Source: a virus. From it: a DNA stretch of 64,000 bases. Below the pieces are notes generated by a model. The model saw nothing but the letters and a program-made list of their open reading frames with translations, was not told the DNA's origin and did not search any database. Of this stretch, positions 20,921 through 47,533 are shown one piece after another (the first letter of the stretch is position 1; each line of letters starts with the position of its first letter). The stretch is taken from IMG/VR virus record IMGVR_UViG_3300020204_000036, positions 1-64,000 of that record; one strand, written 5' to 3'. The translations under genes and the position numbers were made by a program.

Positions 20921-22759
20921 ATGGCAACACAAAAAATTAACTATACTAGTAGAGATTTTGATAGTCTAAGAAAAGACCTGATTAATTACACACAACAATA
21001 CTACCCCGACATAATCCAAAATTTTAACGACGCTTCAATTTTTTCAGTGTTGATGGATTTAAATGCCGCTATAGGTGATAATTTACATTTTCATATTGAC
21101 AGAAGTATACAAGAAACTGTTTTACAATATGCTCAGCAAAGGTCCTCTATTTTTAATATTGCAAGAACATATGGATTAAAAATTCCAGGTTTTAGACCAT
21201 CAGTTGCCCTTGCAGACATTTCGATACAAGTTCCGGCATTTGGAGATAATGAAGATACTCGTTATCTTGGTATCTTAAGAGCAGGTGCTCAGTTTAATGG
21301 AGGGGGTCAAACTTTCGAAACGGTTTATGATGTTGATTTTTCAACTCAATATAATAATGAAGGGTTTAATAACAGAACTAAAGTTCCTATTTTTGACGCT
21401 AACAATAAAATAATTAGTTATATAATGACTAAAAGAGAAGTGGTCGTTAATGGCGTGACTAAAGTTTATAAACAGGTTGTTAATGCTTCAGACGTTATTC
21501 CATTTTATAATTTCTTTTTACCTGAAAAAGATGTGTTGTCTGTGACAACTATAATTCAAAAAGACGGAACACAATATCAATCAACACCAACTAATGCGGA
21601 ATTTATAACAAGCCCAAATAAATGGTACGAAGTGGATGCTTTAGCAGAAGACACCGTCTTTATCGAAGACACTACAAAACCAATTGATAATGCGGGTATA
21701 AAAGTTGGAAGATATATTAAAACAGATAATAGATTTATTTCTGAATACACACCTGAAGGGTATATGAAAATTCAATTTGGTGCGGCAACAACAACACCAA
21801 ATCAACAATTACAACAGTTTGCAAATATTGGAATACCCTTGAAAATACAAAACTACCAAAATAACATAGGATTAGGTTTAACTGTAACACCAAATACCAC
21901 CTTATTTGTTCAATACCGAGTTGGTGGTGGAACGGCGTCAAATGTTGGTGTTGGAGCCATTAATCAAGTAGGGTTGATTGACTTAGCGGTTAACGGGCCA
22001 TCACCCCAAATTAATCAAAGCGTTATTCAGTCAATTAAAGTAAATAATGTTACAAGTGCTGTCGGTGGAGCAAATCAACCAACAATCGAAGAAGCAAGAA
22101 ATATGGTTGCATTTAATTTTGCGGCACAAAAAAGAGCCGTAACCGTAAATGATTATAAATCCTTGATTGACACAATGCCTGGTAAATTTGGAGCGCCGGC
22201 AAAAGTTGCAATTACAGAAAATAATAACAAAGTAACCGTTCAAATTTTATCTTACGACGGAGATGGTAATTTAACACAAACAGTTCCAAACGCACTTAAA
22301 ACAAATCTTGCAATTTACCTTTCTAAATATAGAATGATAAATGACTACATATCTATTGATGTCGCTAAAGTAATTGACTTGGAATTTGAAATTTCAGTTG
22401 TGATAGAAAACAATACCGCCCAAAGTCAGATAATTGCCCAAATAATAGACCAAGTTTCTAAATATATGAACCCTCAAAACAGGGACTTAGGGCAAAATGT
22501 AAATGTTTCAGATGTTAGAAACTTAATACAAAATACTGCCGGTGTCAGTACCTTAACGGATTTGAAAATTTACAATAAGGTTGGAGGGCAGTATTCTTCA
22601 TCAGAAACATCACAAAGATACGCCGACATTGAAACAAAACAAATTCTTTTGATTGACGATACTATTTTTGCAGAACCTGACCAAATTTACCAAATTAGAT
22701 TTGACTCAAGAGACATCAATGTCAGAGTCAAACAACTAAGAACTGTAGACTTCTACTAA
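20921..22759 (+). CDS. Baseplate wedge subunit (gp6/BaseplateJ-like)
   Basis: YTSRDFDSLRKDL, IQFG, YRVGGG, GGA..EEARN..AQKRAVTVNDY. Confidence 0.9.
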   Translation: MATQKINYTSRDFDSLRKDLINYTQQYYPDIIQNFNDASIFSVLMDLNAAIGDNLHFHIDRSIQETVLQYAQQRSSIFNIARTYGLKIPGFRPSVALADISIQVPAFGDNEDTRYLGILRAGAQFNGGGQTFETVYDVDFSTQYNNEGFNNRTKVPIFDANNKIISYIMTKREVVVNGVTKVYKQVVNASDVIPFYNFFLPEKDVLSVTTIIQKDGTQYQSTPTNAEFITSPNKWYEVDALAEDTVFIEDTTKPIDNAGIKVGRYIKTDNRFISEYTPEGYMKIQFGAATTTPNQQLQQFANIGIPLKIQNYQNNIGLGLTVTPNTTLFVQYRVGGGTASNVGVGAINQVGLIDLAVNGPSPQINQSVIQSIKVNNVTSAVGGANQPTIEEARNMVAFNFAAQKRAVTVNDYKSLIDTMPGKFGAPAKVAITENNNKVTVQILSYDGDGNLTQTVPNALKTNLAIYLSKYRMINDYISIDVAKVIDLEFEISVVIENNTAQSQIIAQIIDQVSKYMNPQNRDLGQNVNVSDVRNLIQNTAGVSTLTDLKIYNKVGGQYSSSETSQRYADIETKQILLIDDTIFAEPDQIYQIRFDSRDINVRVKQLRTVDFY

Positions 22760-32259: not shown

Positions 32260-35207
32260 TGGCAAAACAAATTTTTAGATATCCGCCAGCACCACCTGTA
32301 GGTAATTCAACCGCATTTGATAATATAGTTGGATTTCAATTGGTTACGGGTGGAGGTCTGACTCAAGGTAATTTTCAATTTACTACCGCCATATATGAAA
32401 AGGTAAATAGAAATTTCGACTTAGGTGTTTTTTCACGACTTTATAATTTAGAAAATTTAAATATTGAAGATATTGAACAAACCAAAAAAATAATTCAAAA
32501 AAACTTTGCGGTATATCCTAATTTTGATATTTCACAAATAACAAGTTTTACTCTCTATGGTTCGTTACAAAAAAGGTTGTCAGCATCAATTACAAAAATT
32601 ATAAGTAATTTTCCAGCGGCATTAGACGTTAGAAATCAAACGCTTTCACTTACATCAGGATATACTGCAGTAAACATTACTTTCGACCCAATAGAGGATT
32701 TAACGACTTTTGATGTTAATGTTCCTTGGATTGTAAACCCATTTGATATTGATTACTCATCAAACGCTAGAAGAAATTTAGCCGTTAGACCTATCAAAAC
32801 ATCAAATTTTAGGGACCTAACAAATAATTTTGAGTTTTACAGTTTATATTTTTCTAGTGTAACGACAGAATACCCGTTGGTTGATTTTATACCATCACAA
32901 ACACTTACCGCAGGGACGATTACCATGACAGTAGTTGGTAATCCATTTTCAGGTGCAACCGCATCTAAAGATAATTTAATTATAAAACCAAACACACAAA
33001 AAACCGCTGAGATATTTCAAAATGAATTTGATGAGGTTGAAGATTTTATTTTGAATAGAAATACCCAACCAAAATATACATCAACATTTCAGTATCCTTA
33101 TTATGACTCGAACGAAGACTATACTTTAAAAATAGAAAGTGTTACTTGGTTTTTGAATGGTAGTTGGAACTTAGATATAGTATCATCTCAGTTTGACACA
33201 TACTTAGAAAAATTAAGTAGCATTGCTATGTTTTTGGATGATTATAAAACAAATTTAATATCAAGATTTTTAACTACAGGTTCCCTCAAAGACTTTGACA
33301 CGCAAGACCAAAGAATGGAAAAAATCTTGCAAATATATGGTAGAAGTTTTGACGAAGTTAAAAAGTTTATAGACGCTCTTGCAAATATGAACTCAGTAAA
33401 CTATGTTGTTGGAAACGATATACCTTCACAACTTTTAGTAAATTTAGCACAAACACTTGGAGTTAATACAAATATTTCACCAATAAACAATGACCAATTA
33501 TTAGAAGCGGTATTTAGTTCCCAAACAAACAAAATATATACAGGACAAGCTCAAAATCAAACCCCTTCAGAATTGAATTATCAATATTATAGAAATGTTA
33601 TATTAAACTCGGCGTATATGTTTAAATCTAAAGGAACAAGAAATTCTTTAGAATATATAATGAGACTTATTGGTGCTCCTGAGGCCATTACAGAATTTAA
33701 TGAAGTAGTTTATTTAGTTGATTCTAAAATTAATGTCGACCAATTTAAAGAAAATTATGCTAAAATAAGTGGCGGAACTGTGTATGTTGAAAAACCGGCA
33801 TTAGACCCAACAAACGTATTTTCAATTCATGGAAAAACATACACAGGTTTTACAACAGATGGAAATGTTGAAACGGTATCAACCACTTTTAATGATTATG
33901 GTATATCAAACGATGGCTACCCAAAATCGCCAAGGCAAACTGATGATTTCTTTTTTCAAAAAGGTTCAGGATGGTTTGAGTCAAGCCCAAAACATAGGGC
34001 ACCTCAAGTTGTTGATTTAGAAAACTCACAGTTAAATCAAAACGTACCAAGTGTTGTTACACAATTACAACCACCATCTTTTGGTCAAGAATATTTAGAT
34101 AGGTTCACAAAATTTCCTTTTTTAACTGAAGGATACACAATAACAAAAATATTTGACAATCAAAAGTCTTGGTCTGTTGATGACATTGGAAATAGAAAAA
34201 ATAATTCCAACTTCAATGGTGTTGATTACACAATTACAAGTGATAAGCAAATTATAAATTCCAAAAACATTGAATTGAATATCAATATGGGTCAAGGTTT
34301 GGTTTACGATGTTTGGGATATGTGTGTAAAATACGATTACCCAATACCAAATTCAGGATTAACTTCACCTTACCCATATCCTGGAGCCATTGATTGGACT
34401 TTTGTAAATCCAAAACCAAAAGAAAAAACCTTTTTTGAATTTGCTCAATCATTTTTTATGAACATGATTAATGTTCGGAACAGACAAACAATATTTGACG
34501 GTAAGACAGGAGGATACCCAACTTTACAATCGGTATATTGGAAATATCTTCAGTCCCAACAAACCGTAGGCATTCCATCTAATCAATTTACATATCAAAA
34601 AATGATTGATTATACTTTGGGTATTGGTGATTATTGGCAAAGGTTATTGGAGCAATTAGTTCCAGCAACAACACTTTGGCTTACGGGTCAAAAAATGGAA
34701 AACTCAATATTCCATAGGCAAAAATTTGTTTGGAGAAGACAAAGAGGTTGTCAATTTATTCAAGTAGAATGTGTTCCTTGTACGTTCGATGGGCAGTTAT
34801 TTGGGTATGATTGTATTGACCAAACTCTCTCTTGTGGTTTGAATATACAAAGTCCACAAACTTACTTGACTCAAGTTTTAAATTCGGTAATTGCTCAAAG
34901 TGGTTATACACAATCAGACTGTGATTTAACAAGTATTGTTTCAGACTGGTTTATAGACTGTAGATTGGATAATACCATATTGGTCCAAGAGCAATTTTAT
35001 ACGGGTTATGGATATTACGACACACCAACATTTGTTCAAATATCCGATGCTATTAATAATGAATTGGTTGGTTTATATAATCATGGTTTAAATTATTATT
35101 TTGCTGGTAAAACTTTGGTTATTAGTAATTCCACTTGTTATGATGACTTCACAAATAAAAAACTATACCTAAATATAGGAATAAACCTTAGCATAAATTG
35201 TAATTAA
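32259..35207 (+). CDS. Baseplate wedge protein (gp7/P2 gpI-like core)
   Basis: LLVNLAQTLG..AYMFKSKGTRNSLEYIMRLIG..EFNE motif; LEQLVPATT. Confidence 0.65.
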   Translation: MAKQIFRYPPAPPVGNSTAFDNIVGFQLVTGGGLTQGNFQFTTAIYEKVNRNFDLGVFSRLYNLENLNIEDIEQTKKIIQKNFAVYPNFDISQITSFTLYGSLQKRLSASITKIISNFPAALDVRNQTLSLTSGYTAVNITFDPIEDLTTFDVNVPWIVNPFDIDYSSNARRNLAVRPIKTSNFRDLTNNFEFYSLYFSSVTTEYPLVDFIPSQTLTAGTITMTVVGNPFSGATASKDNLIIKPNTQKTAEIFQNEFDEVEDFILNRNTQPKYTSTFQYPYYDSNEDYTLKIESVTWFLNGSWNLDIVSSQFDTYLEKLSSIAMFLDDYKTNLISRFLTTGSLKDFDTQDQRMEKILQIYGRSFDEVKKFIDALANMNSVNYVVGNDIPSQLLVNLAQTLGVNTNISPINNDQLLEAVFSSQTNKIYTGQAQNQTPSELNYQYYRNVILNSAYMFKSKGTRNSLEYIMRLIGAPEAITEFNEVVYLVDSKINVDQFKENYAKISGGTVYVEKPALDPTNVFSIHGKTYTGFTTDGNVETVSTTFNDYGISNDGYPKSPRQTDDFFFQKGSGWFESSPKHRAPQVVDLENSQLNQNVPSVVTQLQPPSFGQEYLDRFTKFPFLTEGYTITKIFDNQKSWSVDDIGNRKNNSNFNGVDYTITSDKQIINSKNIELNINMGQGLVYDVWDMCVKYDYPIPNSGLTSPYPYPGAIDWTFVNPKPKEKTFFEFAQSFFMNMINVRNRQTIFDGKTGGYPTLQSVYWKYLQSQQTVGIPSNQFTYQKMIDYTLGIGDYWQRLLEQLVPATTLWLTGQKMENSIFHRQKFVWRRQRGCQFIQVECVPCTFDGQLFGYDCIDQTLSCGLNIQSPQTYLTQVLNSVIAQSGYTQSDCDLTSIVSDWFIDCRLDNTILVQEQFYTGYGYYDTPTFVQISDAINNELVGLYNHGLNYYFAGKTLVISNSTCYDDFTNKKLYLNIGINLSINCN

Positions 35208-37513
35208 TGGCTTGTTATACAGGATTAACAGACGGTGTTTATTCTTACGTTGATTGTTGTGGCGTCACAAGAACAGGGGCGTCTTTAGGTGAAAGTATTT
35301 GTTTGGACGGAGCTTTTTCTGGTTCGTCTTTTGGTATATATATTGACGAAACAAGTTCATGTAGTCCTACTTGTGAAGAACAACCTTTAGGAATATCATT
35401 TTCCGTAACAGGTGTTTGTTCAGACCCAATAGGGTCAGTAACTTTTTCACCTTTTGGTGGTATACCACCATATACTATCGATAATGTAATACCTGGTGGT
35501 ATAAGTGCTCAAACTTCGTCATCACCAATAACATTCACAGGTCTAACTGCTGACACTTATGTTTTTAGATTAAACGACTCTTTGGGTTATGAAAATAATG
35601 AATTATACATAAATGTTATAATAACAGGTTGTTTTTATACCGATATTATAGAAGTCACAGGAACAAACTGTGGTGAAAATAACGGAACTTTAACTGTAAG
35701 TGCAGATTCACAATCATCGCCTTATACTTTGTTTTTGAAAAATAGTGGCACGACATTACAATCGCAAACAACAACTATTTTTCCATATACTTTTACAAAT
35801 CTTTCTGCGGATACCTATTTTGTTCAAGTTGTTGATTACGGATTATCCACAGCCACAACAGCAAATGCAATTATTTCGGGAAGTAGTTCTTTAGATTTTG
35901 GTTTTTGGAAAGTAAATACATCAACTTGTGTTATTAACCAAGGTAAATTATCGGTAACTGGAGTCACAGGAACACCACCATATACATATCTTTGGAGTAA
36001 TGGAGAAACAGGACAAACAATAACAGGACTTACTTTAGGTGAATATAGTTGCACAGTAACGGATGCGAATGGTTGTGTGACAACAAAAAGTGAAACTATA
36101 GGTCAGGCCGACCCATTAGGTGTTGGGATTGTAACTTCAGAAAATCCTACATGTTTTTCATCAAATGGCAGTATAACTTTTACAATCACGGGAGGTAGTG
36201 TTCCATATTATTATTCGGCTAGCACTTCACAAGTTGGATACACATTAAGCAATACTTTAACACTTTCAGGTTTATCAAGTGGAAATTACAATTTAGAAAT
36301 AACTGACGGTAATTTTTGTAAAGAAACAATAAGTGCTTTCATAAATGCTACAAATTCATTTTTTGTTGTTGATACGCAAGTTATTAATTCAAACTGTAGT
36401 CAACAACTAGGCTCAGTTTCGATTTCACTTCAAGGCTCTAATAACTTTTATACATATATTCTATCAGGACAAACTAATGGTTTATACTACACTAATACAA
36501 CACAAAGTTTAACAAGTTCATTTTCAGGATTAACAAATGACACTTATGATTTGACAATATCGGCAACAGGAACCAATTGTGCATATACAACTTCATTTAT
36601 TGTATCTTCAACCGATAAGTTCAGTATAACAACATCAACAACTGGCTCGACTTGTTCTCAAAATGACGGAATTTTATACATCGAGGTAAGTAGCGGATAT
36701 ACTTTACCGTTAGATTATATATTAAGTGATGGTCAGTCGGTAATTGATACATCCGCAACGGCATACACCTTCAATAATTTGGTTGCGGGTAGTTATTCAA
36801 TAATAATAGTTGATGGCGACGGTTGTCAAATTGAAGAAAGAGTTACCATATCAACAGGAGGTAGTTTATTGTCTGCAATTTCAACAACACAATGTTATAA
36901 CGGTCAAAACGGAACTGCTGAAATTTTGATTTATGCGGGAGAACCAACATTTACTTATGATTGGTCAAATAATGTACCATCAGGACAAACTGGCTCTACA
37001 ATATCAGGATTAACCGCCGGAACTTATTCAGTGGAAGTTTTAGATAGTAGCGGGTGTTCACAAATACATGATTTTACAATAACTTGCTTTGGAAATAATG
37101 TTTCCACTTATTCACTTGTAACTCTTTGTGAAAATACTTTTACGACAACAGTGGGGGATAAACGAGGGTTTTTAGAAATGTTAAATGAAGGGTATATCGA
37201 TGTAACAAGTGGATATACAGGTTGTAGTTTGAATACTGCTGAATTCATACTTGAGTTAGATATAAATGGTTCAGGATACACCCAAACATTTTATACTGCG
37301 ACAACACTAAATGATGTCCCACAAGATATACTATGGCAATCAACAATAGAAAGTGTTTTAAGTGGTATCACAGACATTAGTCTTTATACTATTAGTTTAA
37401 CTGATAATACAATCCACATTGAGTCAAATTGTGAAGGAGATTATGACCCATTATCTGACGCCAATTTTACTTTGGAATTAACAATCGAATACGATGTAAC
37501 TTGTTTTACTTAG
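35207..37513 (+). CDS. SprB-repeat, Cys-rich tail adhesin-like protein
   Basis: Multiple C..G.I...GG.PPY.Y.WSNG...GL..G.Y...V.D.NGC units. Confidence 0.8.
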   Translation: MACYTGLTDGVYSYVDCCGVTRTGASLGESICLDGAFSGSSFGIYIDETSSCSPTCEEQPLGISFSVTGVCSDPIGSVTFSPFGGIPPYTIDNVIPGGISAQTSSSPITFTGLTADTYVFRLNDSLGYENNELYINVIITGCFYTDIIEVTGTNCGENNGTLTVSADSQSSPYTLFLKNSGTTLQSQTTTIFPYTFTNLSADTYFVQVVDYGLSTATTANAIISGSSSLDFGFWKVNTSTCVINQGKLSVTGVTGTPPYTYLWSNGETGQTITGLTLGEYSCTVTDANGCVTTKSETIGQADPLGVGIVTSENPTCFSSNGSITFTITGGSVPYYYSASTSQVGYTLSNTLTLSGLSSGNYNLEITDGNFCKETISAFINATNSFFVVDTQVINSNCSQQLGSVSISLQGSNNFYTYILSGQTNGLYYTNTTQSLTSSFSGLTNDTYDLTISATGTNCAYTTSFIVSSTDKFSITTSTTGSTCSQNDGILYIEVSSGYTLPLDYILSDGQSVIDTSATAYTFNNLVAGSYSIIIVDGDGCQIEERVTISTGGSLLSAISTTQCYNGQNGTAEILIYAGEPTFTYDWSNNVPSGQTGSTISGLTAGTYSVEVLDSSGCSQIHDFTITCFGNNVSTYSLVTLCENTFTTTVGDKRGFLEMLNEGYIDVTSGYTGCSLNTAEFILELDINGSGYTQTFYTATTLNDVPQDILWQSTIESVLSGITDISLYTISLTDNTIHIESNCEGDYDPLSDANFTLELTIEYDVTCFT

Positions 37514-37726: not shown

Positions 37727-37951
37727 ATGATAATAGAAATAACAGGAGTCACAAGCGGAACAAGTCCTTATGATGTATATATATGTGACCCAACAAATGT
37801 ATCTTGTTTTTATGTATCGGGAGTAACATCTATTCCACCAAATGTTGTAATTGATTCATCAATTTTTTTTCCAAATGAGGATATTGTTTATATAAAAGTC
37901 ATAACTGCAGATGGATGTCTAGAAGAAATTCAAATAGACTGTAGTAGTTAA
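37727..37951 (+). CDS. Stand-alone single SprB-like unit, paralog 2 (possibly truncated by a nonsense codon)
   Basis: ITGVTSGTSPYDVYICD..IKVITADGCLE; frame continues LLQENGFIIKIT after the TAA. Confidence 0.7.
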   Translation: MIIEITGVTSGTSPYDVYICDPTNVSCFYVSGVTSIPPNVVIDSSIFFPNEDIVYIKVITADGCLEEIQIDCSS

Positions 37952-38072
37952 CTACTACAAGAAAATGGATTTATAATCAAAATAACTTGATAACTTTATA
38001 AAATACCAAGCGGCCTCATGAAATGTGTCCGCAATTCTATCTTTAATTGTAACAATAAATAAAGTGAGTTAA
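37952..38072 (+). pseudogene. Relic of an adaptor tail and the 3' end of a deleted fibre gene
   Basis: 37952-37990 reads LLQENGFIIKIT*; 38001-38072 reads KYQAAS*NVSAILSLIVTINKVS*. Confidence 0.45.
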
Positions 38073-38126
38073 TATGTACTTTATTTAGTTTTTTTATTTT
38101 TTACTTTTTTACAAAAGTTGTTATTT

Positions 38127-39368
38127 ATGAAAATATTTGTTCAAATTGCGTCATACCGCGACCCCGAACTATTACCAACAATTAGAGATTGTATCAATAA
38201 AGCAAAACATCCTCAAAATCTAACATTTGGCATATGTTGGCAAAGAGATGAAAATGAATCATTAGAAGAATTTCAAAACGACGAAAGGTTCACAATTTTG
38301 GACTATCATTGGACTAAAAGTAAAGGTTTATGTTGGGCCAGAAGTCTCATTCAAAAACTATGGAAAGGTGAAGAGTACACAATGCAATTAGACTCACATC
38401 ATCGGTTTTTACAAGATTGGGATGTGGAATTAATTGAAATGATGAAATTAACTGGTGTTGAAAAGCCAATAATCACTACTTATGCAGGAATGTATGACCC
38501 AAAAACTAATACGTTATTAAATGAAGAGCCATATAAATGCACGGCAAGAAAGTTTTCAGAATACGGCACAATTTTCTTTTATCCTGAACAAATACCAAAT
38601 TGGCAAAAATTAGAAAAACCAATACCGGCAAGATTTGTAAGTGGTCATTTCTTTTTTACATTAGGAAAACATTGTGAAGAATACAAGTACGACCCAAATA
38701 TATATTTCGCGGGAGATGAAATAAGTTTATCAATTAGGTCTTATACGTTAGGTTATGATTTATTCCACCCTCATAAGACAGTTGTTTGGCATGAATATAC
38801 AAGAATAGGTAGAATTAAACATTGGGATGATTTTAATGAAGAAAATGTAAAAAAAGGATTAATTGAAAAAGAATGGCATGTAATTAATTCAGAAGGGTTG
38901 GTTAGATTAAGACATATGTTACAAGAAGAAGATAATAATATTGATTTAGGGGAATTTGGTTTAGGTGATGTAAGGTCGCATAGGGATTATGAGTTATATG
39001 CTGGTATTGATTTTAAAAAAAGAAGATTACACCCCAAAACATTAAAAGGAACCGACCCACCAATAAACGACGACTCAAATTGGTTTGAAACTAAACTAAA
39101 TAAATTCACATACAATATAGTTGTACCAAGAATTGAGGCGCCAGTTGATGATTATGATTTTTGGGCCGTTTCATTTTTAGATGAATTCGGTGGGGAAATA
39201 TTTAGACAAGATGCCGATGAAGAAGAATTAAAGACTTGTTACGCAGTTAAAGGTGATTACGTTCAAATTAAAAGAACTTTTATGGTTGATGATTCTGCAA
39301 AATCTTGGTCGATATGGTTACACCATAAAGAAAACGGTTGGGTTAAACAAATAACAGGAGAAATATGA
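38127..39368 (+). CDS. GT60-like polypeptide/Skp1 alpha-GlcNAc transferase (Pfam GlcNAc family)
   Basis: IFVQIASYRDPEL, SKGLCWARS, MQLDSHHRFLQDWD, FVSGHFFF, YDP..YFAGDEISLSIRSYTLGYDLFHP..VWHEY. Confidence 0.85.
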   Translation: MKIFVQIASYRDPELLPTIRDCINKAKHPQNLTFGICWQRDENESLEEFQNDERFTILDYHWTKSKGLCWARSLIQKLWKGEEYTMQLDSHHRFLQDWDVELIEMMKLTGVEKPIITTYAGMYDPKTNTLLNEEPYKCTARKFSEYGTIFFYPEQIPNWQKLEKPIPARFVSGHFFFTLGKHCEEYKYDPNIYFAGDEISLSIRSYTLGYDLFHPHKTVVWHEYTRIGRIKHWDDFNEENVKKGLIEKEWHVINSEGLVRLRHMLQEEDNNIDLGEFGLGDVRSHRDYELYAGIDFKKRRLHPKTLKGTDPPINDDSNWFETKLNKFTYNIVVPRIEAPVDDYDFWAVSFLDEFGGEIFRQDADEEELKTCYAVKGDYVQIKRTFMVDDSAKSWSIWLHHKENGWVKQITGEI

Positions 39369-40162
39369 AAATAGGTGCATTTTATCAATCGGGGCATAAA
39401 CTTGTTGCTTGTTATAAAGCACTAGAACAATTAAGAAATATTTATCCAAAAATTCCAATCGTATTATATGAAGATGGTTCTGAAATATTGGAACCTGTTG
39501 CAAAAAAATTTAATTGTGATTATAATTGGATTGAACAACAAGGATTTAATTATCCTCACTCTGGTAGGGTATTTTCAAGTGAAAACGGACCTTTAGATTG
39601 GTTAAAAAGAATTTATGACGCTTGTATAACAACATTAAAAGATGTGGATTGGGTTATACATTATGAAGATGATGTTTGGTGTAAACGTGAAATAACAAAA
39701 CCACCAACATTCGATATTGCAGGAGCAAATGGACCTATGTACACACCTGAACTTTACAAGTATTTAAAAAATAAATTCAATATAACAGACGAATCACGAC
39801 ATTATTGGAGTGAGATTGGTTCATTAGAAGGTTATGGTGCTTGTGGGGGTGCAATATTCAATCGTAAAAAATTTATCGAAATATATCACAGATTGAACGA
39901 AGTCCCGTGGGGTGAAATATATCACTTAGATACAAGACCAATTGAGTGGTGTGATGCAACACTTTCATTTCTTTTTCAATTTTTCGGTTACACAAGCGGT
40001 GTTTGGGATGATTGGGCAGAATACGATTCAAAAAATCAAGGAGATTGGTGGGATAAAAGTGGTTGGTCAATACCTATGGAAAAACAACCTGATGTTGCTT
40101 TTATTCATGCGTATAAACACTTTTATAACTATCTCCCTGAAGAAATAAACCTTGAGTTGTAA
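39365..40162 (+). CDS. GT-A fold glycosyltransferase
   Basis: LRNIYPKIPIVLYEDG, DWVIHYEDDVW (DxD-like), GACGGAIF, WCDATLS, FIHAYK; ATGA overlap with the GT60 gene. Confidence 0.75.
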   Translation: MKIGAFYQSGHKLVACYKALEQLRNIYPKIPIVLYEDGSEILEPVAKKFNCDYNWIEQQGFNYPHSGRVFSSENGPLDWLKRIYDACITTLKDVDWVIHYEDDVWCKREITKPPTFDIAGANGPMYTPELYKYLKNKFNITDESRHYWSEIGSLEGYGACGGAIFNRKKFIEIYHRLNEVPWGEIYHLDTRPIEWCDATLSFLFQFFGYTSGVWDDWAEYDSKNQGDWWDKSGWSIPMEKQPDVAFIHAYKHFYNYLPEEINLEL

Positions 40163-40207
40163 ATAAAATAAACATAAGCTTATTTATATTATAAAGTTAA
40201 TTTTTCT

Positions 40208-41815
40208 ATGGCAGATATTCTTTTAGAAAGTTGTTGTTATCCTGGGTTACAATATTATACCGATGAGTCAAATTGGACGGGAGCCACTTCTGCAGTGACA
40301 ACGGTTTTTTCTGTTACTTATGATTCTGTCGTAGTTTCAGGTTGTTATACAATAGTATCTGCGTTCACTTCCGGATTTACATCAACTAGCATAGTCCCTG
40401 ATGGGGTATATACTCAAGTAACAGGATGCACAGACCCATTTTGTGCAACAGGACAATGTTGTTCAAATGAGTATTGTGTTCAAATTAACGATGTAAATTT
40501 TTCAGCATATAGTGGTAGTTATGTTGTGGCCGGAAGTTATAATTCCTTACCTTTTTTTACAGGTGGAACACAACCTGGATACATTTATAAAGGACCAACA
40601 AAATGGTGTTTAGGAACTTCTGCAGGCACAGGTTGTTATTTCTTTGGGCAAGACCCAACTCTATCACCTTGTCCAAATTTATACACGGACTTGTTTTATG
40701 AAGGTCCTTGTGGAACACCACTACCAACTCCAACGCCCGTTTGTGATATATTTGATTTTGAAGTTGACGTGTTATGTGTGACACCAACTCCGACTCCAAC
40801 ACCAACACCAACACCAACTCCGACCCCTACACCCACACCATCACCAACACCTGATATATGTTCAGGATTTACTGTTGATATTACGGTTAGTGGAACAACA
40901 CCAACTCCTACGCCAACACCTACTCCCACCCCTACTCCAACGCCAACAATTAATTTAACGGGAGAAACGGTAACATTTACAATAGATGATGGAAACTTTG
41001 TATGTTTTAGAGTTAAAGAGTTAAGAGATTGTAATGAAAACGTAACTTATTATGTTTCGGGTTCTTTAGATATATCAGGAACACCAATAACAACAGGTCA
41101 GACGTTCTTAGGAGTTATTAATGACCAATTGAAATGTGCAACTTACATACAAGATACAACTGCAAGTCCAAATGCTACAATTAAACTTGTTGTTTCGGCA
41201 TACACAGGATGTACGGTTTGTCCAACACCAACACCTACACCAACACCTACACCAACTCCCACACCAACTCCGACACCTACACCAACTCCAACGCCTACAT
41301 TCGCGCCAGGAACTTACTTTGTGTTTACATCTTGTACTACAACATCGATGATTACACAAACAGCTTATCCACCAACTAATCTTGACCCAGGAGAAGTAAT
41401 TAGAGATTATTCTGGAAATTGTTATAGTTATGTAGGATATTTTATAAATTATATTCCACCTTCAGGTTATATTGTGGTAAATGAAGACAGATTTACAGCG
41501 ACAACAGCAACAACATACGTTGATTGTGCTGAATGTTTATTAGTCGAACCGCTAGTTGTAACATTTAATACTTGGATTGGAAGTGGGGCATATTCGGTAA
41601 ATTGCCCTGGATGCCAATTAACTAACTTTGGTCTACAAACAATATTCTATACACACCCATCGGTTAATCAAATACAAACAGGAGTGACCGTGTATAGTAA
41701 TTCGTCATTGTTATATCCGTTAACAATTGACTATATCAGATACGGAAATAAAATTTATAGTGTTAATAATAGTGGTGTTATCACTGAGTTTTGCACAGTA
41801 AACGGAGTTTGTTAA
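40208..41815 (+). CDS. Cys-rich tail-associated protein with mucin-like (Pro-Thr)n linkers
   Basis: Three long (PT)n tracts and one short one separating Cys-rich domains; TATTTATA at 40181. Confidence 0.75.
   Translation: MADILLESCCYPGLQYYTDESNWTGATSAVTTVFSVTYDSVVVSGCYTIVSAFTSGFTSTSIVPDGVYTQVTGCTDPFCATGQCCSNEYCVQINDVNFSAYSGSYVVAGSYNSLPFFTGGTQPGYIYKGPTKWCLGTSAGTGCYFFGQDPTLSPCPNLYTDLFYEGPCGTPLPTPTPVCDIFDFEVDVLCVTPTPTPTPTPTPTPTPTPTPSPTPDICSGFTVDITVSGTTPTPTPTPTPTPTPTPTINLTGETVTFTIDDGNFVCFRVKELRDCNENVTYYVSGSLDISGTPITTGQTFLGVINDQLKCATYIQDTTASPNATIKLVVSAYTGCTVCPTPTPTPTPTPTPTPTPTPTPTPTPTFAPGTYFVFTSCTTTSMITQTAYPPTNLDPGEVIRDYSGNCYSYVGYFINYIPPSGYIVVNEDRFTATTATTYVDCAECLLVEPLVVTFNTWIGSGAYSVNCPGCQLTNFGLQTIFYTHPSVNQIQTGVTVYSNSSLLYPLTIDYIRYGNKIYSVNNSGVITEFCTVNGVC
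40781..41299 (+). repeat. Three hexamer tandem tracts encoding (Thr-Pro)n
   Basis: acN-ccN repeats at about 40781-40852, 40898-40948 and 41222-41299 with varied third codon positions. Confidence 0.92.
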
Positions 41816-43711: not shown

Positions 43712-45286
43712 ATGGGATTATTAAGTGGAAATAGTTGTAATATAATAACACTCCTACCTTTGGGGTTAGATTGTGACAGCATTAATGCATCAACACCCGA
43801 TTCCACAAATGGTCTTATAACTCTTTATGTTACAGGAGGAACACCACCATATAATATTTCTTGGAGCAATGGGGCCCAAGGGTCTTTAATAACAAACTTA
43901 CTACCTGGCGATTATACCGCAACCGTTATAGATTATTATGGTGATTTTACAGGAAGGACAACTTGTAGTGTTGACTATGATAGTTTTTACTTAGAACAAT
44001 TTGAAGATTGCCAAAATTCAGGAAACTTTGTTTATTATGTTGCAGATTTACCATCTACTTTTGTTGATGGTAAAGTTTATAGTTTAACAACACAAACAGG
44101 TTGTTGGACACATAGTGGTCAAACACTTTATACAGGACAATCATATGTAAATAATTTTGCAGTCGTGTCAACAGGGCCATTTGATACTTGTTCAGATTGT
44201 TTACCACCACCAGTACCACCTCCGGTTTATCCACAAAATCTTTGTTTTGAATATACACCATCACCGAATACAACTTATTTAACTACCTACTCGAGTGGGT
44301 CTACAATTAATGGTTATCCATCTTGGACAAGTTCAACTACAACAATGTATTATAATACAGGAAACACAAGATGGGAAATTAGTGGATGGACTAATTCAGG
44401 AGTTCCTGCATTACTTCAACCCACAACACCACCAACAGGTAATTGGTCACTACTTGGAACACTACCTGCAACGATATTTGTTAGCACAGGAGTTTGTACA
44501 ACACCACCACTTACATTATCAGTAACAACAACACAACCGACTTGTTCAAATACAAGTAATGGTGTGATAAACGTTACAGGTTATGGTGGAGTTCCTTCAT
44601 ACACTTACTCAATAAATGGGGTAAATTATCAAGTATCAAATGTATTTTTAGGTTTGGGGGCTGGAAATTATACAGTTTACATTAAAGATACTAACAATAC
44701 GGTAACAGCACAATCGGTTACGTTGACGCCTCAAAACGCATTCACTAATTACGTTTTGAATTTAAGTTTGACGCCTTTGGCAAATCAAATAAATGTTGGT
44801 ACAACGGTAACGAAAACTTGGTATTATCAAATAAATGTAACGCCAACACTTCCAGCAGGTCGAACAGTAAATTTCACAATTAATACAGCGGTTGGTTTCA
44901 CGGGGAAAACATTCATAACAAACTTACCAATAATTACAAACTCAATAACAGCAACAACTACAGGAAGTGCAACATTAAGCTCTCCTGTTAACTCAACTGT
45001 TATATCAACAGGATTAAGTAGACCATCTTGTTTAACTTCATTTATTTATTACAGTTCTTACACAAATACTTATACTGCGACCATTTCATCGGGAGGTATT
45101 ATTAATGGAGTTATCACACAATTTATTGATACACCAACAATGGAGTTTAGAGGATGTGAATTAGAAGGATATATATTGGATTCCGTTTCAATTACAAATG
45201 TTACTATAACTCCATCAACATGTAGTGGTATAAGTGTAAATGGTTCGCCTAAAACAATGCCTTTACAAAAAATAGGTTTGTCTTAA
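43712..45286 (+). CDS. SprB-repeat, Thr-rich tail protein
   Basis: GGTPPYNISWSNG..LLPGDYTATVID; PTC..NGVINVTGYGGVPSYTYSING..GLGAGNYTVYIKD. Confidence 0.78.
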   Translation: MGLLSGNSCNIITLLPLGLDCDSINASTPDSTNGLITLYVTGGTPPYNISWSNGAQGSLITNLLPGDYTATVIDYYGDFTGRTTCSVDYDSFYLEQFEDCQNSGNFVYYVADLPSTFVDGKVYSLTTQTGCWTHSGQTLYTGQSYVNNFAVVSTGPFDTCSDCLPPPVPPPVYPQNLCFEYTPSPNTTYLTTYSSGSTINGYPSWTSSTTTMYYNTGNTRWEISGWTNSGVPALLQPTTPPTGNWSLLGTLPATIFVSTGVCTTPPLTLSVTTTQPTCSNTSNGVINVTGYGGVPSYTYSINGVNYQVSNVFLGLGAGNYTVYIKDTNNTVTAQSVTLTPQNAFTNYVLNLSLTPLANQINVGTTVTKTWYYQINVTPTLPAGRTVNFTINTAVGFTGKTFITNLPIITNSITATTTGSATLSSPVNSTVISTGLSRPSCLTSFIYYSSYTNTYTATISSGGIINGVITQFIDTPTMEFRGCELEGYILDSVSITNVTITPSTCSGISVNGSPKTMPLQKIGLS

Positions 45287-45319: not shown

Positions 45320-47533
45320 ATGTCATATATAATCAAAAATACCTCAGCGTTAATTAACACCATAATCACTGACGCGGCCAGAAAAAAAATATCGCAAGGT
45401 AAATTTGACATTTCTTATTTTGAATTAGGTGATAGTGAAGTTTGTTATAATTGTACAAGTAATACGGATTATGTCCAACTTAATGTTTTGATGCCCCAAT
45501 ACAACGCACAAAACTTAGCTCCGATTCCTGAAAAAAATAGAATGCAAGTTAAATATCCATTGTTTGTGGACTCAACATCAGGTAGCACCTTGGGAGTTCC
45601 ATTTGATGCGTCTTACATAGATAATGTATTTAATAGTGCTGCTCCTCGTGGATTCTTAACAGGTTCAACAGGCTCTCCTGTTGTTTTTAGTGCCTATACA
45701 TCTTCAGCATATACGATTAATCCTAATTTTCTTGTTTCTAATTCGGCGGTAACTTCGGGAGATGTATTAACATTAACATATTCAAGTATTGACCCAACAG
45801 TTTCAGGCACAGTTACAAATGGAATGTTTTTATTTTTATTTGGAACAGATAACATACAACCATTTACAGGAGCTGCGCCAATTTTTAGTTATGTTGTAGT
45901 TGGTGTAACAGGTGATACATCTACAGCGACCACTGTAAATATTCAAGTGGATAGACAATTACCTAACTTTAGTGGGATGGGATATACTGGTGACTCGAGA
46001 GTTATCTTCTATCCATCAGGTATGACAGTAATTTATGACTCTTTTACTCCTGAACCTTATTGGCATCCAAATGTCTTCAATTTTGAAACAAATTGTGATG
46101 TTTCACAAAATGATGTTAAAGTTTGGAATATGAACATTCCTTGGACAGAATCACCTGCAGGAATATTCAACACTGTGAATCAAGATTTTAACCAATTTGC
46201 ATCTACAGGATATACAGGTTCTAAAGAATATTTGGGTTACTATTCCGATAGTGGTCAAACAGATACAGATTCGGTATATTTTTATAATTCATTTTCTGAA
46301 AAAATAACTCTAAAACCATCTGAACAAAAGGCCATTGCGATTGTACATTATACAAATCAAGCGATTGATAACTATTATGGTGAAAAGTTTGCAATGCAAG
46401 ATTTTGACGCAAATAATCCAGGGAATACAGGTCAAGCAAGAAACTTTAAACTTTCCATTCCGTGGTTAATGTGGCACAAAAACCCAAGTGGTACAACAGG
46501 TGAAGTATTTTACACAGACCCATCAGGTTTTACTAGTTTAAATTTATTTACACCTCATTACATTGAGTCTAAAAAAAGTATAAACTTTAATGCCCCTGGT
46601 TTAAGATACTACCATCTTTGGGACACTCACCCAAATACAAATGGAATACCTAATAGAATTGGTAAAGTTTTCACTGATTTGAAAATTATAGTTTTTGATG
46701 ATGATGAAATAGTGGCAGCACTTAATTACAAGTCAAATAGAAGTTGGACTTTACCGGCACCTAAATTGGGGTTAGTAACTCCTAATACCTTTAGTGGTGT
46801 TTTAGGTGGGGTTCAGGGATTATTAACAGGAAATACTGAAACATTATTTTTAACATATAGATTTAATAACTCAGCATTTACAAATTCACTTCACTGTAAT
46901 TACTACCAAACAATCACAGGGAACGACCAAAGTTTATTACCGGGAGCTTCTGATATTCTTGTTAGATTCGGGAATGAGTTTCCATTTTTACAAGTTCCTT
47001 CAGTTGGATTACCTTCAGGATTTACTGCAAATGAAATTAAGTTATTGGCTCAAAAAGTCACAACTGCAACAACAAGACCCGATGTGACCCAATGGAGAGA
47101 AATTGATGTAACATCACAATTATCAGCAACAACCGTTGGTGGTTATTTAACGGTAACAGGTTTAACTGGAACAACCTTGCAGTTAACCAAAAACATGTAT
47201 GACACTGCACCAATATATGACCTTAATGATTATATAACGTTACCCGTATTAAATCAAACAGGAATAACCTTAAACTTTGGTGGTGAATTCTTCTTTTTTG
47301 GGACAATTGAAACAGATATTCAAGCAACAATATATGTTATGAACTTCTTATGTAATTTAGGTCAAACACAATTCTTCGATTCTTCAAACCCAACTTGGGA
47401 CGGAACAACACCACCTTACGTTACTGAAGTTGCACTTTACAATGCAAACAAAGAACTTATGGTTATTTCTAAGATACAATCACCTGAAAAAAGACAAGGT
47501 GTCCAGCAGTATCCTATTAAGTACGATTTTTAA
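45320..47533 (+). CDS. Tail-fibre attachment/collar-type protein
   Basis: N-terminal IITDAARKKISQG..ISYFELGD and C-terminal YVTEVALYNANKELMVISK, the two halves of a P2 gpH-like N-domain; TATTTATA at 45308. Confidence 0.6.
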   Translation: MSYIIKNTSALINTIITDAARKKISQGKFDISYFELGDSEVCYNCTSNTDYVQLNVLMPQYNAQNLAPIPEKNRMQVKYPLFVDSTSGSTLGVPFDASYIDNVFNSAAPRGFLTGSTGSPVVFSAYTSSAYTINPNFLVSNSAVTSGDVLTLTYSSIDPTVSGTVTNGMFLFLFGTDNIQPFTGAAPIFSYVVVGVTGDTSTATTVNIQVDRQLPNFSGMGYTGDSRVIFYPSGMTVIYDSFTPEPYWHPNVFNFETNCDVSQNDVKVWNMNIPWTESPAGIFNTVNQDFNQFASTGYTGSKEYLGYYSDSGQTDTDSVYFYNSFSEKITLKPSEQKAIAIVHYTNQAIDNYYGEKFAMQDFDANNPGNTGQARNFKLSIPWLMWHKNPSGTTGEVFYTDPSGFTSLNLFTPHYIESKKSINFNAPGLRYYHLWDTHPNTNGIPNRIGKVFTDLKIIVFDDDEIVAALNYKSNRSWTLPAPKLGLVTPNTFSGVLGGVQGLLTGNTETLFLTYRFNNSAFTNSLHCNYYQTITGNDQSLLPGASDILVRFGNEFPFLQVPSVGLPSGFTANEIKLLAQKVTTATTRPDVTQWREIDVTSQLSATTVGGYLTVTGLTGTTLQLTKNMYDTAPIYDLNDYITLPVLNQTGITLNFGGEFFFFGTIETDIQATIYVMNFLCNLGQTQFFDSSNPTWDGTTPPYVTEVALYNANKELMVISKIQSPEKRQGVQQYPIKYDF

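Follow-up and report, generated by a model that had tools for sequence, protein, structure and literature searches.

A GT60-led glycosyltransferase cassette beside a (Pro-Thr)n protein in a phage tail module: a candidate system for O-glycosylation of the phage's own proteins

Introduction

What does a phage modify with glycosyltransferases (GTs) that are encoded within its tail module? This question is raised by a 64,000-nucleotide stretch of viral DNA (the window), which represents the first 64 kb of the 83.8-kb IMG/VR viral record IMGVR_UViG_3300020204_000036 (completeness, 29%). Two GT genes, here called GT1 and GT2, immediately precede the gene for a Cys-rich protein with three long (Pro-Thr)n tracts, here called the PT protein. 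A preliminary description of the DNA had placed these coupled genes and the tracts at the positions where we find them (Table 1) and had proposed that the phage O-glycosylates its own fibers in a mucin-like manner. This interpretation is partly supported by our comparative analysis, which makes it likely that the phage glycosylates proteins of its own tail module, probably on threonine.

Very few cases of glycosylated phage particles are known, and islands of several GT genes in large phages are usually read as serving DNA or host-surface modification. Our literature search found no paper linking GT60 or its Pfam family PF11397 with Pro-Thr proteins in phages; one preprint merely lists GT60 among viral CAZy genes.

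Results

GT1 belongs to family GT60

Searched with profile hidden Markov models, GT1 matched PF11397 ("GlcNAc") with an E value of 1.7e-64 and 218.9 bits (cut-off, 21), over profile positions 2-44 and 95-351 of 352. This was the sole Pfam domain found in the protein, and it corresponds to CAZy family GT60 (PMC6939170), in agreement with the family proposed in the preliminary description. GT1 also matched PHROG 24687 ("glycosyltransferase", 1e-105), and a sequence search of the PDB returned no chain at E values up to 1. Characterized GT60 enzymes are described as polypeptide alpha-N-acetylglucosamine (GlcNAc) transferases acting on hydroxyproline of Skp1 or on Ser/Thr-rich mucin domains (PMC6939170, PMC8724618). 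By analogy, we regard GT1 as a putative initiating polypeptide N-acetylhexosamine (HexNAc) transferase.

An alignment of 26 homologs (41-95% identity) revealed the invariant residues D89-S90-H91, G196/E198/I199/R204, G209-Y210-D211 and W221-R226. The candidate D-x-H motif, E198 and H222 were invariant in this set, and we take the D-x-H motif to bind metal and, together with the downstream acidic and histidine motifs, to have a catalytic role in GT60. The same alignment did not support an alternative TTG start at 38118, and the ATG at 38127 was kept.

GT1 is composed of a catalytic domain (residues ~1-300) followed by a C-terminal domain of ~100 amino acids (aa) without family assignment. It is a domain chimera, since its two domains differ in their nearest relatives. 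Residues 1-300 are 79-81% identical to the homologs of loci L015, L017 and L020, whereas residues 318-413 are just 18-23% identical to the same proteins (L numbers designate loci, and G numbers designate larger records). Conversely, L100 shares 59% identity with GT1 in the C-terminal domain and merely 47% in the catalytic domain.

Database searches with GT1 yielded 6743 proteins at E values up to 1e-10, all of them unnamed among the 120 listed, and homologs were present in 4 of 50,697 GenBank phage records. ORF334 of phage XacN1 is a full-length homolog (37.7% identity), and further homologs occur in Xoo-sp13, Stenotrophomonas CM1 and RAS14. By sequence inspection, neither GT1, GT2 nor the PT protein has an N-terminal hydrophobic stretch or a membrane segment, which fits an action in the cytoplasm.

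The homologs in XacN1 and Xoo-sp13 lie near genes for DNA polymerase, RNase H and carbamoyl transferase, as might be expected if these enzymes glycosylated phage DNA in the course of hydroxymethyl-pyrimidine hypermodification. Indeed, phage GT-A and GT-B enzymes that glycosylate 5-hydroxymethylcytosine are known (bioRxiv 10.1101/2023.12.21.572611). However, the DNA GTs described in that preprint adjoin C5-methyltransferase/5mYOX or ThyS genes, and its text does not mention GT60. We rejected the DNA-modification reading as extremely improbable, because such partner enzymes (5mYOX/TET plus C5-methyltransferase, or ThyS type) were not found near the cassette. Tet_JBP (PF12851) was found neither in the window's record (G000) nor in G009, G014 and G015, a weak negative because the control genomes likewise gave no match. 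The ThyA family PF00303 was present solely in G014, where over 220 kb separate it from the cassette; G009, which is 98% complete, gave no match.

The Pro-Thr tracts are conserved at the peptide level

The PT protein contains 28 Cys, 98 Thr and 59 Pro residues. Its predicted structure comprises beta-rich domains at residues 1-170, 266-338 and 365-535, with a predicted local distance difference test score (pLDDT) mostly of 72-92 per block and below 50 in the PT regions. The model thus depicts "beads on a string," in which globular Cys-rich domains are joined by PT linkers. In a fold search of the PDB, no match exceeded Z 4.6, a level we regard as noise; on the same grounds, we discarded a weak resemblance between residues 451-535 and phage neck proteins (Z 4.2-4.4). 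Searching BFVD retrieved uncharacterized phage proteins only, including proteins of a Cellulophaga phage and of virus NIOZ-UU157.

The preliminary description had taken third-position variation in the tract codons as a sign of selection on the protein, and this was borne out. The codons vary at the third position in line with the genome's own Pro and Thr codon usage, and Tandem Repeats Finder reported the tract DNA as imperfect repeats with 78-89% matching. Across 28 homologs, tract residues are 64-97% identical, while 46-71% of the conserved tract codons differ synonymously. Outside the tracts, the protein is 44-57% identical in the 25 homologs that fall below 60% identity there. Compared with the 93%-identical L005, the synonymous difference is 0.65 in tract codons and 0.28 elsewhere in the gene. 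Tract positions and lengths are kept in the homolog alignment. Since the residues are retained while the synonymous sites are scrambled, selection acts on the tract peptide.

In L114, L115, L116 and L122, tract 3 is swapped for a non-PT segment (alignment columns ~362-392). In L115, whose slot (see below) lacks a GT, the remaining PT tracts show Thr-to-Pro/Ile changes.

GT60 genes are linked to PT tracts in phages and bacteria

We fetched 80 related viral loci by means of a marker, the conserved 737-aa protein encoded at 45320. A GT60 gene was found at most 10 kb upstream of the marker in 53 of them, and all 53 also carried a PT-protein homolog. The longest tract reached at least 16 aa in 44/53 loci with GT60, compared to 3/27 without. 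One of these three, L125, proved to be an artefact of the locus edge, with its GT60 gene just beyond the locus. After clustering at 90% marker identity, the counts were 19/6 versus 2/13 (Fisher p 2e-4, kinship ignored); because the loci lacking GT60 mostly belong to one distant subclade, this table is not phylogenetically independent.

The linkage is also seen at the scale of whole records. The 292-kb record G014 (99% complete) has four (PT)5+ tracts, all of them in the two genes on either side of the GT60-GT2 pair, and in G000, G015 and G007 each tract lies within ~5 kb of GT60. Furthermore, GT60 adjoins other, unrelated PT-tract proteins in L038, L042 and L046. In a reciprocal scan, in which viral loci were found by their (PT)7 tracts (120 loci listed, 1.13 Mb), 9 of the 120 contained a GT60 gene. 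They included five distant lineages, whose GT60 genes were all PF11397 by Pfam; GT60 was 0-3 genes away from the PT protein in four of these and ~11 kb away in the fifth (L221). By comparison, the GenBank phage records matching GT1 numbered just 4 of 50,697.

Bacterial genomes gave a similar picture. A (P[TS])5+ tract was present within 8 kb in 13 of 80 bacterial GT60 loci, whereas each of six control dipeptide repeats occurred in 0-3 of the 80. A VgrG spike with a C-terminal PT tail (32-118 aa) is encoded within 8 kb of GT60 in Paraburkholderia ferrariae, Ralstonia sp. 25C and Paraherbaspirillum soli. The Burkholderiales VgrG loci are L396:13078-15573, L399:10270-13131 and L374:11903-14461, with tracts of 92, 118 and 32 aa. 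Had GT60 and PT-tract genes been unlinked in relatives, the preliminary description would have counted this against itself; the linkage instead extends from this phage group to other viruses and to bacteria.

In three of the viral loci (L307:3-4232, L298:754-4096 and L262:841-5807), a radical-SAM/SPASM enzyme joins GT60 and the PT-tract protein. In L307, the interval separating GT60 from the PT protein additionally encodes a PF13640 2-oxoglutarate-dependent oxygenase of the prolyl-hydroxylase type. These arrangements may represent a version of the system that uses hydroxyproline or a peptide maturase.

The oxygenase of L307 bears on the identity of the acceptor. Following the Skp1 route, a host hydroxylase or an unrecognized phage hydroxylase could act on tract proline before GT60 adds alpha-GlcNAc to the hydroxyproline. 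Gnt1, a characterized GT60 enzyme, is specific for hydroxyproline (PMC6939170), and G009 encodes two PF13640 proteins, although these are far from its GT60. On the other hand, PF13640 was not found in G000 (29% complete), G014 (99%) or G015 (76%), in keeping with the preliminary description, which had seen no prolyl hydroxylase, and other GT60 enzymes are reported to use Ser/Thr in mucin domains (PMC8724618). We therefore hold a hydroxyproline acceptor to be quite unlikely. Because no prolyl hydroxylase was found, Thr would be the likeliest acceptor.

GT60 leads a cassette of exchangeable genes at a fixed slot

The ATG of GT2 overlaps the stop codon of GT1 by 4 nt (ATGA), indicating that GT2 is translationally coupled to the GT60 gene. 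GT2 matched no Pfam or PHROG family, and a sequence search of the PDB gave three chance-level matches only (E 0.6-0.9). We found 124 relatives, and the 120 listed were all unnamed or "hypothetical" and had no Pfam domain. In an alignment of 44 homologs, a DxD-type acidic motif located after model strand 96-100 was conserved, with E101 and D103 invariant and D102 kept in at least 90%.

The AlphaFold2 (AF2) model of GT2 (pLDDT 93.8) has a GT-A fold. Foldseek retrieved 389 PDB matches at E values up to 0.001, those listed being all glycosyltransferases, and ranked GT6 enzymes first (E 4e-8, template-modeling score ~0.5). With VIA-align, matches covered residues 1-255 at Z 14.1 to 9.5 and were for the most part GT-A glycosyltransferases, with several similarly folded nucleotidyltransferases among them. 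The best were CHSY3 (Z 14.1, root-mean-square deviation 3.3, 196 residues aligned), C1GalT1 (Z 12.8), and B3GalT5 and Manic Fringe (both Z 12.4), while BoGT6a scored Z 10.5. At the level of the model, the GT-A fold proposed in the preliminary description can be regarded as settled. The matches do not single out one CAZy family, GT6 and GT31 having been considered, or a retaining or inverting chemistry: Foldseek favors GT6, VIA-align favors CHSY3, C1GalT1, B3GalT5 and Fringe, and Pfam is silent.

GT2 occurs in 19 of the 53 GT60-bearing marker loci. It is thus a GT-A enzyme, as had been proposed, but one that is optional and exchangeable rather than a fixed part of the system, and we regard it as a putative second, extending enzyme of an unnamed family.

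What else is present became clear from the content of the slot, which we define as the interval bounded by the small Cys protein on one side and the PT protein on the other. In relatives, we found GT60 alone; GT60 with GT2; a GT60 of 41-52% identity, by itself or accompanied by HtrL_YibB; GT60 followed by DUF3431, two unassigned proteins and HtrL_YibB; GT60 with a sulfotransferase-like protein, GT25 and an HtrL fusion; and GT60 with a 567-aa GT34/DUF273 protein. L100 is particularly informative. Its PT protein is 93% identical to that of the window, yet its GT60 is just 52% identical and an HtrL_YibB gene stands where GT2 would be, indicating that the cassette is swapped at a fixed slot.

In the more distant G009, GT60 is at another place, directly after the gene for a 1314-aa Laminin_G_3 protein, and leads a series of GT10, GT11, FkbM methyltransferase, GT25 and GT61 genes, together with a kinase and an aldolase. 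Taken together, these gene orders suggest that GT60 is the constant first enzyme of a variable glycan-building cassette, the genes after it being exchanged. On another phage backbone (L091:8807-9907), a UDP-galactopyranose mutase (PF03275, E 7.6e-73) follows GT60-GT2, hinting at galactofuranose in the glycan of that phage.

Several partners of the cassette (HtrL_YibB, GT25) belong to Pfam families associated with lipopolysaccharide, and multi-GT clusters of cyanophages are usually read as cell-surface modification (PMC12801897). The enzymes could then act on a non-protein host acceptor, such as an envelope glycan, lipopolysaccharide or capsule, or assemble a glycan, free or linked to lipid, that serves to take over the host or to exclude superinfection. 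We consider this very unlikely. The characterized GT60 enzymes cited act on polypeptides (PMC6939170, PMC8724618), the proteins lack membrane segments, and the cassette sits on the same strand as the late structural gene block that contains it. Moreover, an action on host glycans leaves the specific co-location with PT tracts unexplained.

Setting of the cassette in the tail module

At 83.8 kb and 29% completeness, the record probably derives from an uncultured jumbo phage of ~290 kb. The window has a GC content of 27-38%, and all its long open reading frames (ORFs) are on the + strand. A block of large proteins extends from the baseplate wedge gene to ~47.5 kb; it encloses the GT60, GT2 and PT genes and is bordered on either side by replication genes. 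Within this block, the GT60-GT2 cassette lies among structural genes of the same strand, between SprB-repeat and baseplate-module genes.

The two SprB-repeat proteins (35207 and 43712) matched PF13573 with E values of 8e-15 and 1e-8. These repeats, known from a Bacteroidota gliding adhesin, and the BFVD matches to a Cellulophaga phage point to a Bacteroidota host. A Bacteroidota-type promoter pattern was not enriched in the window (12 seen versus 8.0 expected, with 17 of 100 shuffles reaching 12), and none was present in the gap preceding GT60. A blastn search of the locus against GenBank phages gave no match.

The 74-aa Cys protein has longer homologs (133-378 aa) that carry PT tracts of 8-32 aa in L020, L085, L113, L118, L121, L129, L140 and L141, and in G014 a homolog contains the PT tract at 64205-64287. 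A collagen-like ORF of 259-268 aa stands immediately 5' of GT60 in L005 (7131-7934), L007 and L100 (2032-2808); its score against PF01391 (23.8-24.7 bits) is under the cut-off.

Table 1. Positions of the GT cassette, the PT protein and neighboring features within the window
Feature	Position	Strand	Basis or remark
GT60-family glycosyltransferase GT1, 413 aa	38127..39368	+	Pfam PF11397, PHROG 24687
GT2, 265-aa GT-A-fold glycosyltransferase	39365..40162	+	AF2 model, fold matches
Cys-rich PT protein, 535 aa, candidate acceptor	40208..41815	+	ORF; three (PT)n tracts
PT tract 1, residues 192-215, 24 aa	40781..40852	+	Position kept in 29 aligned homologs
PT tract 2, residues 231-247, 17 aa	40898..40948	+	Position kept in 29 aligned homologs
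PT tract 3, residues 339-364, 26 aa	41222..41299	+	Conserved position; non-PT in four relatives
74-aa Cys protein	37727..37951	+	Directly upstream; other flank of cassette
175-nt gap before GT60	37952..38126	.	Collagen-like ORF of relatives absent here
SprB-repeat protein	35207-37513		PF13573 SprB repeats
SprB-repeat protein	43712-45286		PF13573 SprB repeats; PHROG "virion structural protein" match
Baseplate wedge gene	20921-22759	+	PHROG 219, 8e-22

Discussion

We propose that the cassette O-glycosylates tail-module proteins of the phage itself, in the cytoplasm of the host and before assembly. GT60 would move a first sugar, by family analogy an alpha-linked GlcNAc or another HexNAc, from a UDP-sugar to hydroxyl groups, most likely those of Thr, within the (Pro-Thr)n tracts of the neighboring 535-aa PT protein. 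The coupled 265-aa GT2 would then add a second sugar. In relatives, the PT tracts of neighboring fiber proteins would be modified as well. The result would be short, dense, mucin-like glycans on the extended linkers between globular Cys-rich domains. By exchange of the extender genes (none, HtrL/YibB-type, GT25, GT2-family, GT32-like, GT34, GT10/GT11/GT61, sulfotransferase or methyltransferase), each phage may acquire its own type of glycan. The benefit could lie in stiffening of the linkers, protection from proteases or masking of the surface.

Several points weigh against this proposal. The case for activity of the phage GT60 is a comparative one, and the statistics of the association between GT60 and PT tracts ignore phylogeny. 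The PT protein is placed in the virion tentatively, by gene order, because its globular domains resemble no known fold. In 16 of 60 viral loci retrieved by GT60, the nearest 8 kb contained no tract of 8 aa or longer. G009, G010 and G011 carry GT60 and no (PT)5+ tract, although in G009 four degenerate T/P-rich stretches occur in the 1314-aa protein encoded upstream of GT60. GT60-GT2 pairs in which GT2 is 62-77% identical also occur on other phage backbones, and there the 8 kb around them encode no PT protein (L073, L074, L080, L081 and L091-L093). Conversely, L114, L115 and L124 retain PT tracts and have no GT in the slot or elsewhere in their 30- to 32-kb contigs, and the sole (PT)5+ tract of Xoo-sp13 is 136 kb away from its GT60. 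Fiber-gene regions commonly receive insertions of accessory genes, so that some of the adjacency could reflect a shared hypervariable location.

The loci and genomes that have GT60 and lack tracts, G009-G011 in particular, indicate that PT tracts are not the sole conceivable acceptor. They also favor a different reading, in which the cassette glycosylates structural proteins at other sites (further Ser/Thr-rich surfaces, the small Cys proteins or the collagen-like protein of relatives) and the PT tracts are plain spacers. PT linkers are indeed common spacers in secreted and fiber proteins, and the position of the collagen-like ORF next to GT60 would suit this reading. However, the collagen-like gene is absent from the window, and all tracts of the G014 genome flank its GT pair. 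The linkage also emerges from the scan that begins with PT tracts and again at bacterial VgrG loci, and mucin-type GT60 enzymes are described on Ser/Thr-rich mucin domains (PMC8724618). Modification restricted to non-PT sites therefore appears unlikely to us, and glycosylation of tail-module proteins that includes the PT tracts is the reading we retain.

If this is correct, a protist-type mucin-initiating enzyme would be a common tool of phages, given the 6743 matches at E values up to 1e-10. It would assign a function to the (Pro-Thr)n linkers of fiber proteins, explain a hypervariable gene slot in the tail modules of jumbo phages and tie phage fibers to the spikes of type VI secretion systems (T6SS). 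Soluble enzymes performing mucin-type O-glycosylation in the bacterial cytoplasm would, in addition, be useful to glyco-engineers. A broader hypothesis, which we put forward tentatively as possible though rather doubtful, is that GT60-led cassettes form a widespread, unrecognized "glyco-serotype" system of contractile-injection machines. Mucin-like brushes would be mounted on the (Pro-Thr)n stalks of phages and of T6SS VgrG spikes, and exchanges of extender genes and of the C-terminal docking domain of GT60, made within one fixed slot next to the gene for the acceptor, would create different glycan types. In a parallel branch, a prolyl hydroxylase and a radical-SAM/SPASM enzyme would act on the tract first. 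How stiff the fiber is, and how it is recognized by host, defense or grazer, would depend on the brush.

How does the proposed system compare with known ones? The protist GT60 enzymes of Dictyostelium and Trypanosoma cruzi share the Pfam family with GT1, and in both cases dense Thr/Pro-rich tracts are candidate acceptors. Like them, GT1, in which only PF11397 was found, lacks the ricin-type lectin domain of animal GT27 (PMC8724618). Unlike them, it has no membrane anchor and is expected to act inside the bacterial cytoplasm, it carries an exchangeable C-terminal domain (~100 aa) of its own, and its candidate acceptors are strict (PT)n linkers of a tail-module protein. A cytoplasmic GT60 followed by soluble GTs that extend a short protein glycan is also found in the Skp1 pathway (PhyA, Gnt1, PgtA and later GTs) (PMC6939170). 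In contrast to that pathway, no prolyl hydroxylase was found in the window's record or the 99%-complete relative, the target would be repeated tracts instead of one proline, and the extenders are unrelated and variable. The bacterial GT60 loci resemble the window in having a (PT)n tract of 32-118 aa on a contractile-injection protein within 8 kb. They are, however, cellular loci, and the tract forms a tail at the C terminus instead of linking domains.

Among viruses, glycosylation of a structural protein, at least in part by viral GTs, has been reported for the chlorovirus PBCV-1 (PMC5852040), which differs in being a eukaryotic virus, in the target (the major capsid protein) and in the GT families. 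Closer to the window is XacN1, where ~20 kb (L004/AP018399.1 203370-223508) comprise the 3313-aa ORF325, a GT9 gene, a carbamoyl transferase gene and the GT60 homolog. The only (PT)5+ tract of the XacN1 genome is in ORF325, 9.3 kb from the GT60 homolog, with the GT9 gene in between. XacN1 is reported to encode two phage GTs, one of them ORF334, and to have at least two virion glycoproteins, which were ascribed to the phage GTs (PMC5852040). Its GT60 homolog, unlike GT1, stands beside the carbamoyl transferase gene and near replication genes.

Aquatic jumbo phages with predicted Bacteroidota hosts are described as having four GT orthogroups in a paper on moraphages, which also cites virion glycosylation in mycobacteriophages (PMC12619734). 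As summarized there, Freeman et al. (2023) found glycans on a mycobacteriophage's own virion proteins, at the C termini of capsid and tail-tube subunits (PMC12619734). The present system differs from it in its candidate sites, which are internal PT linkers, in its GT60 initiator and hypervariable extenders, and in the host group. Virus-encoded glycosylation of virions is thus already known, and the GT60-led cassette beside a PT protein would be a variant of that theme.

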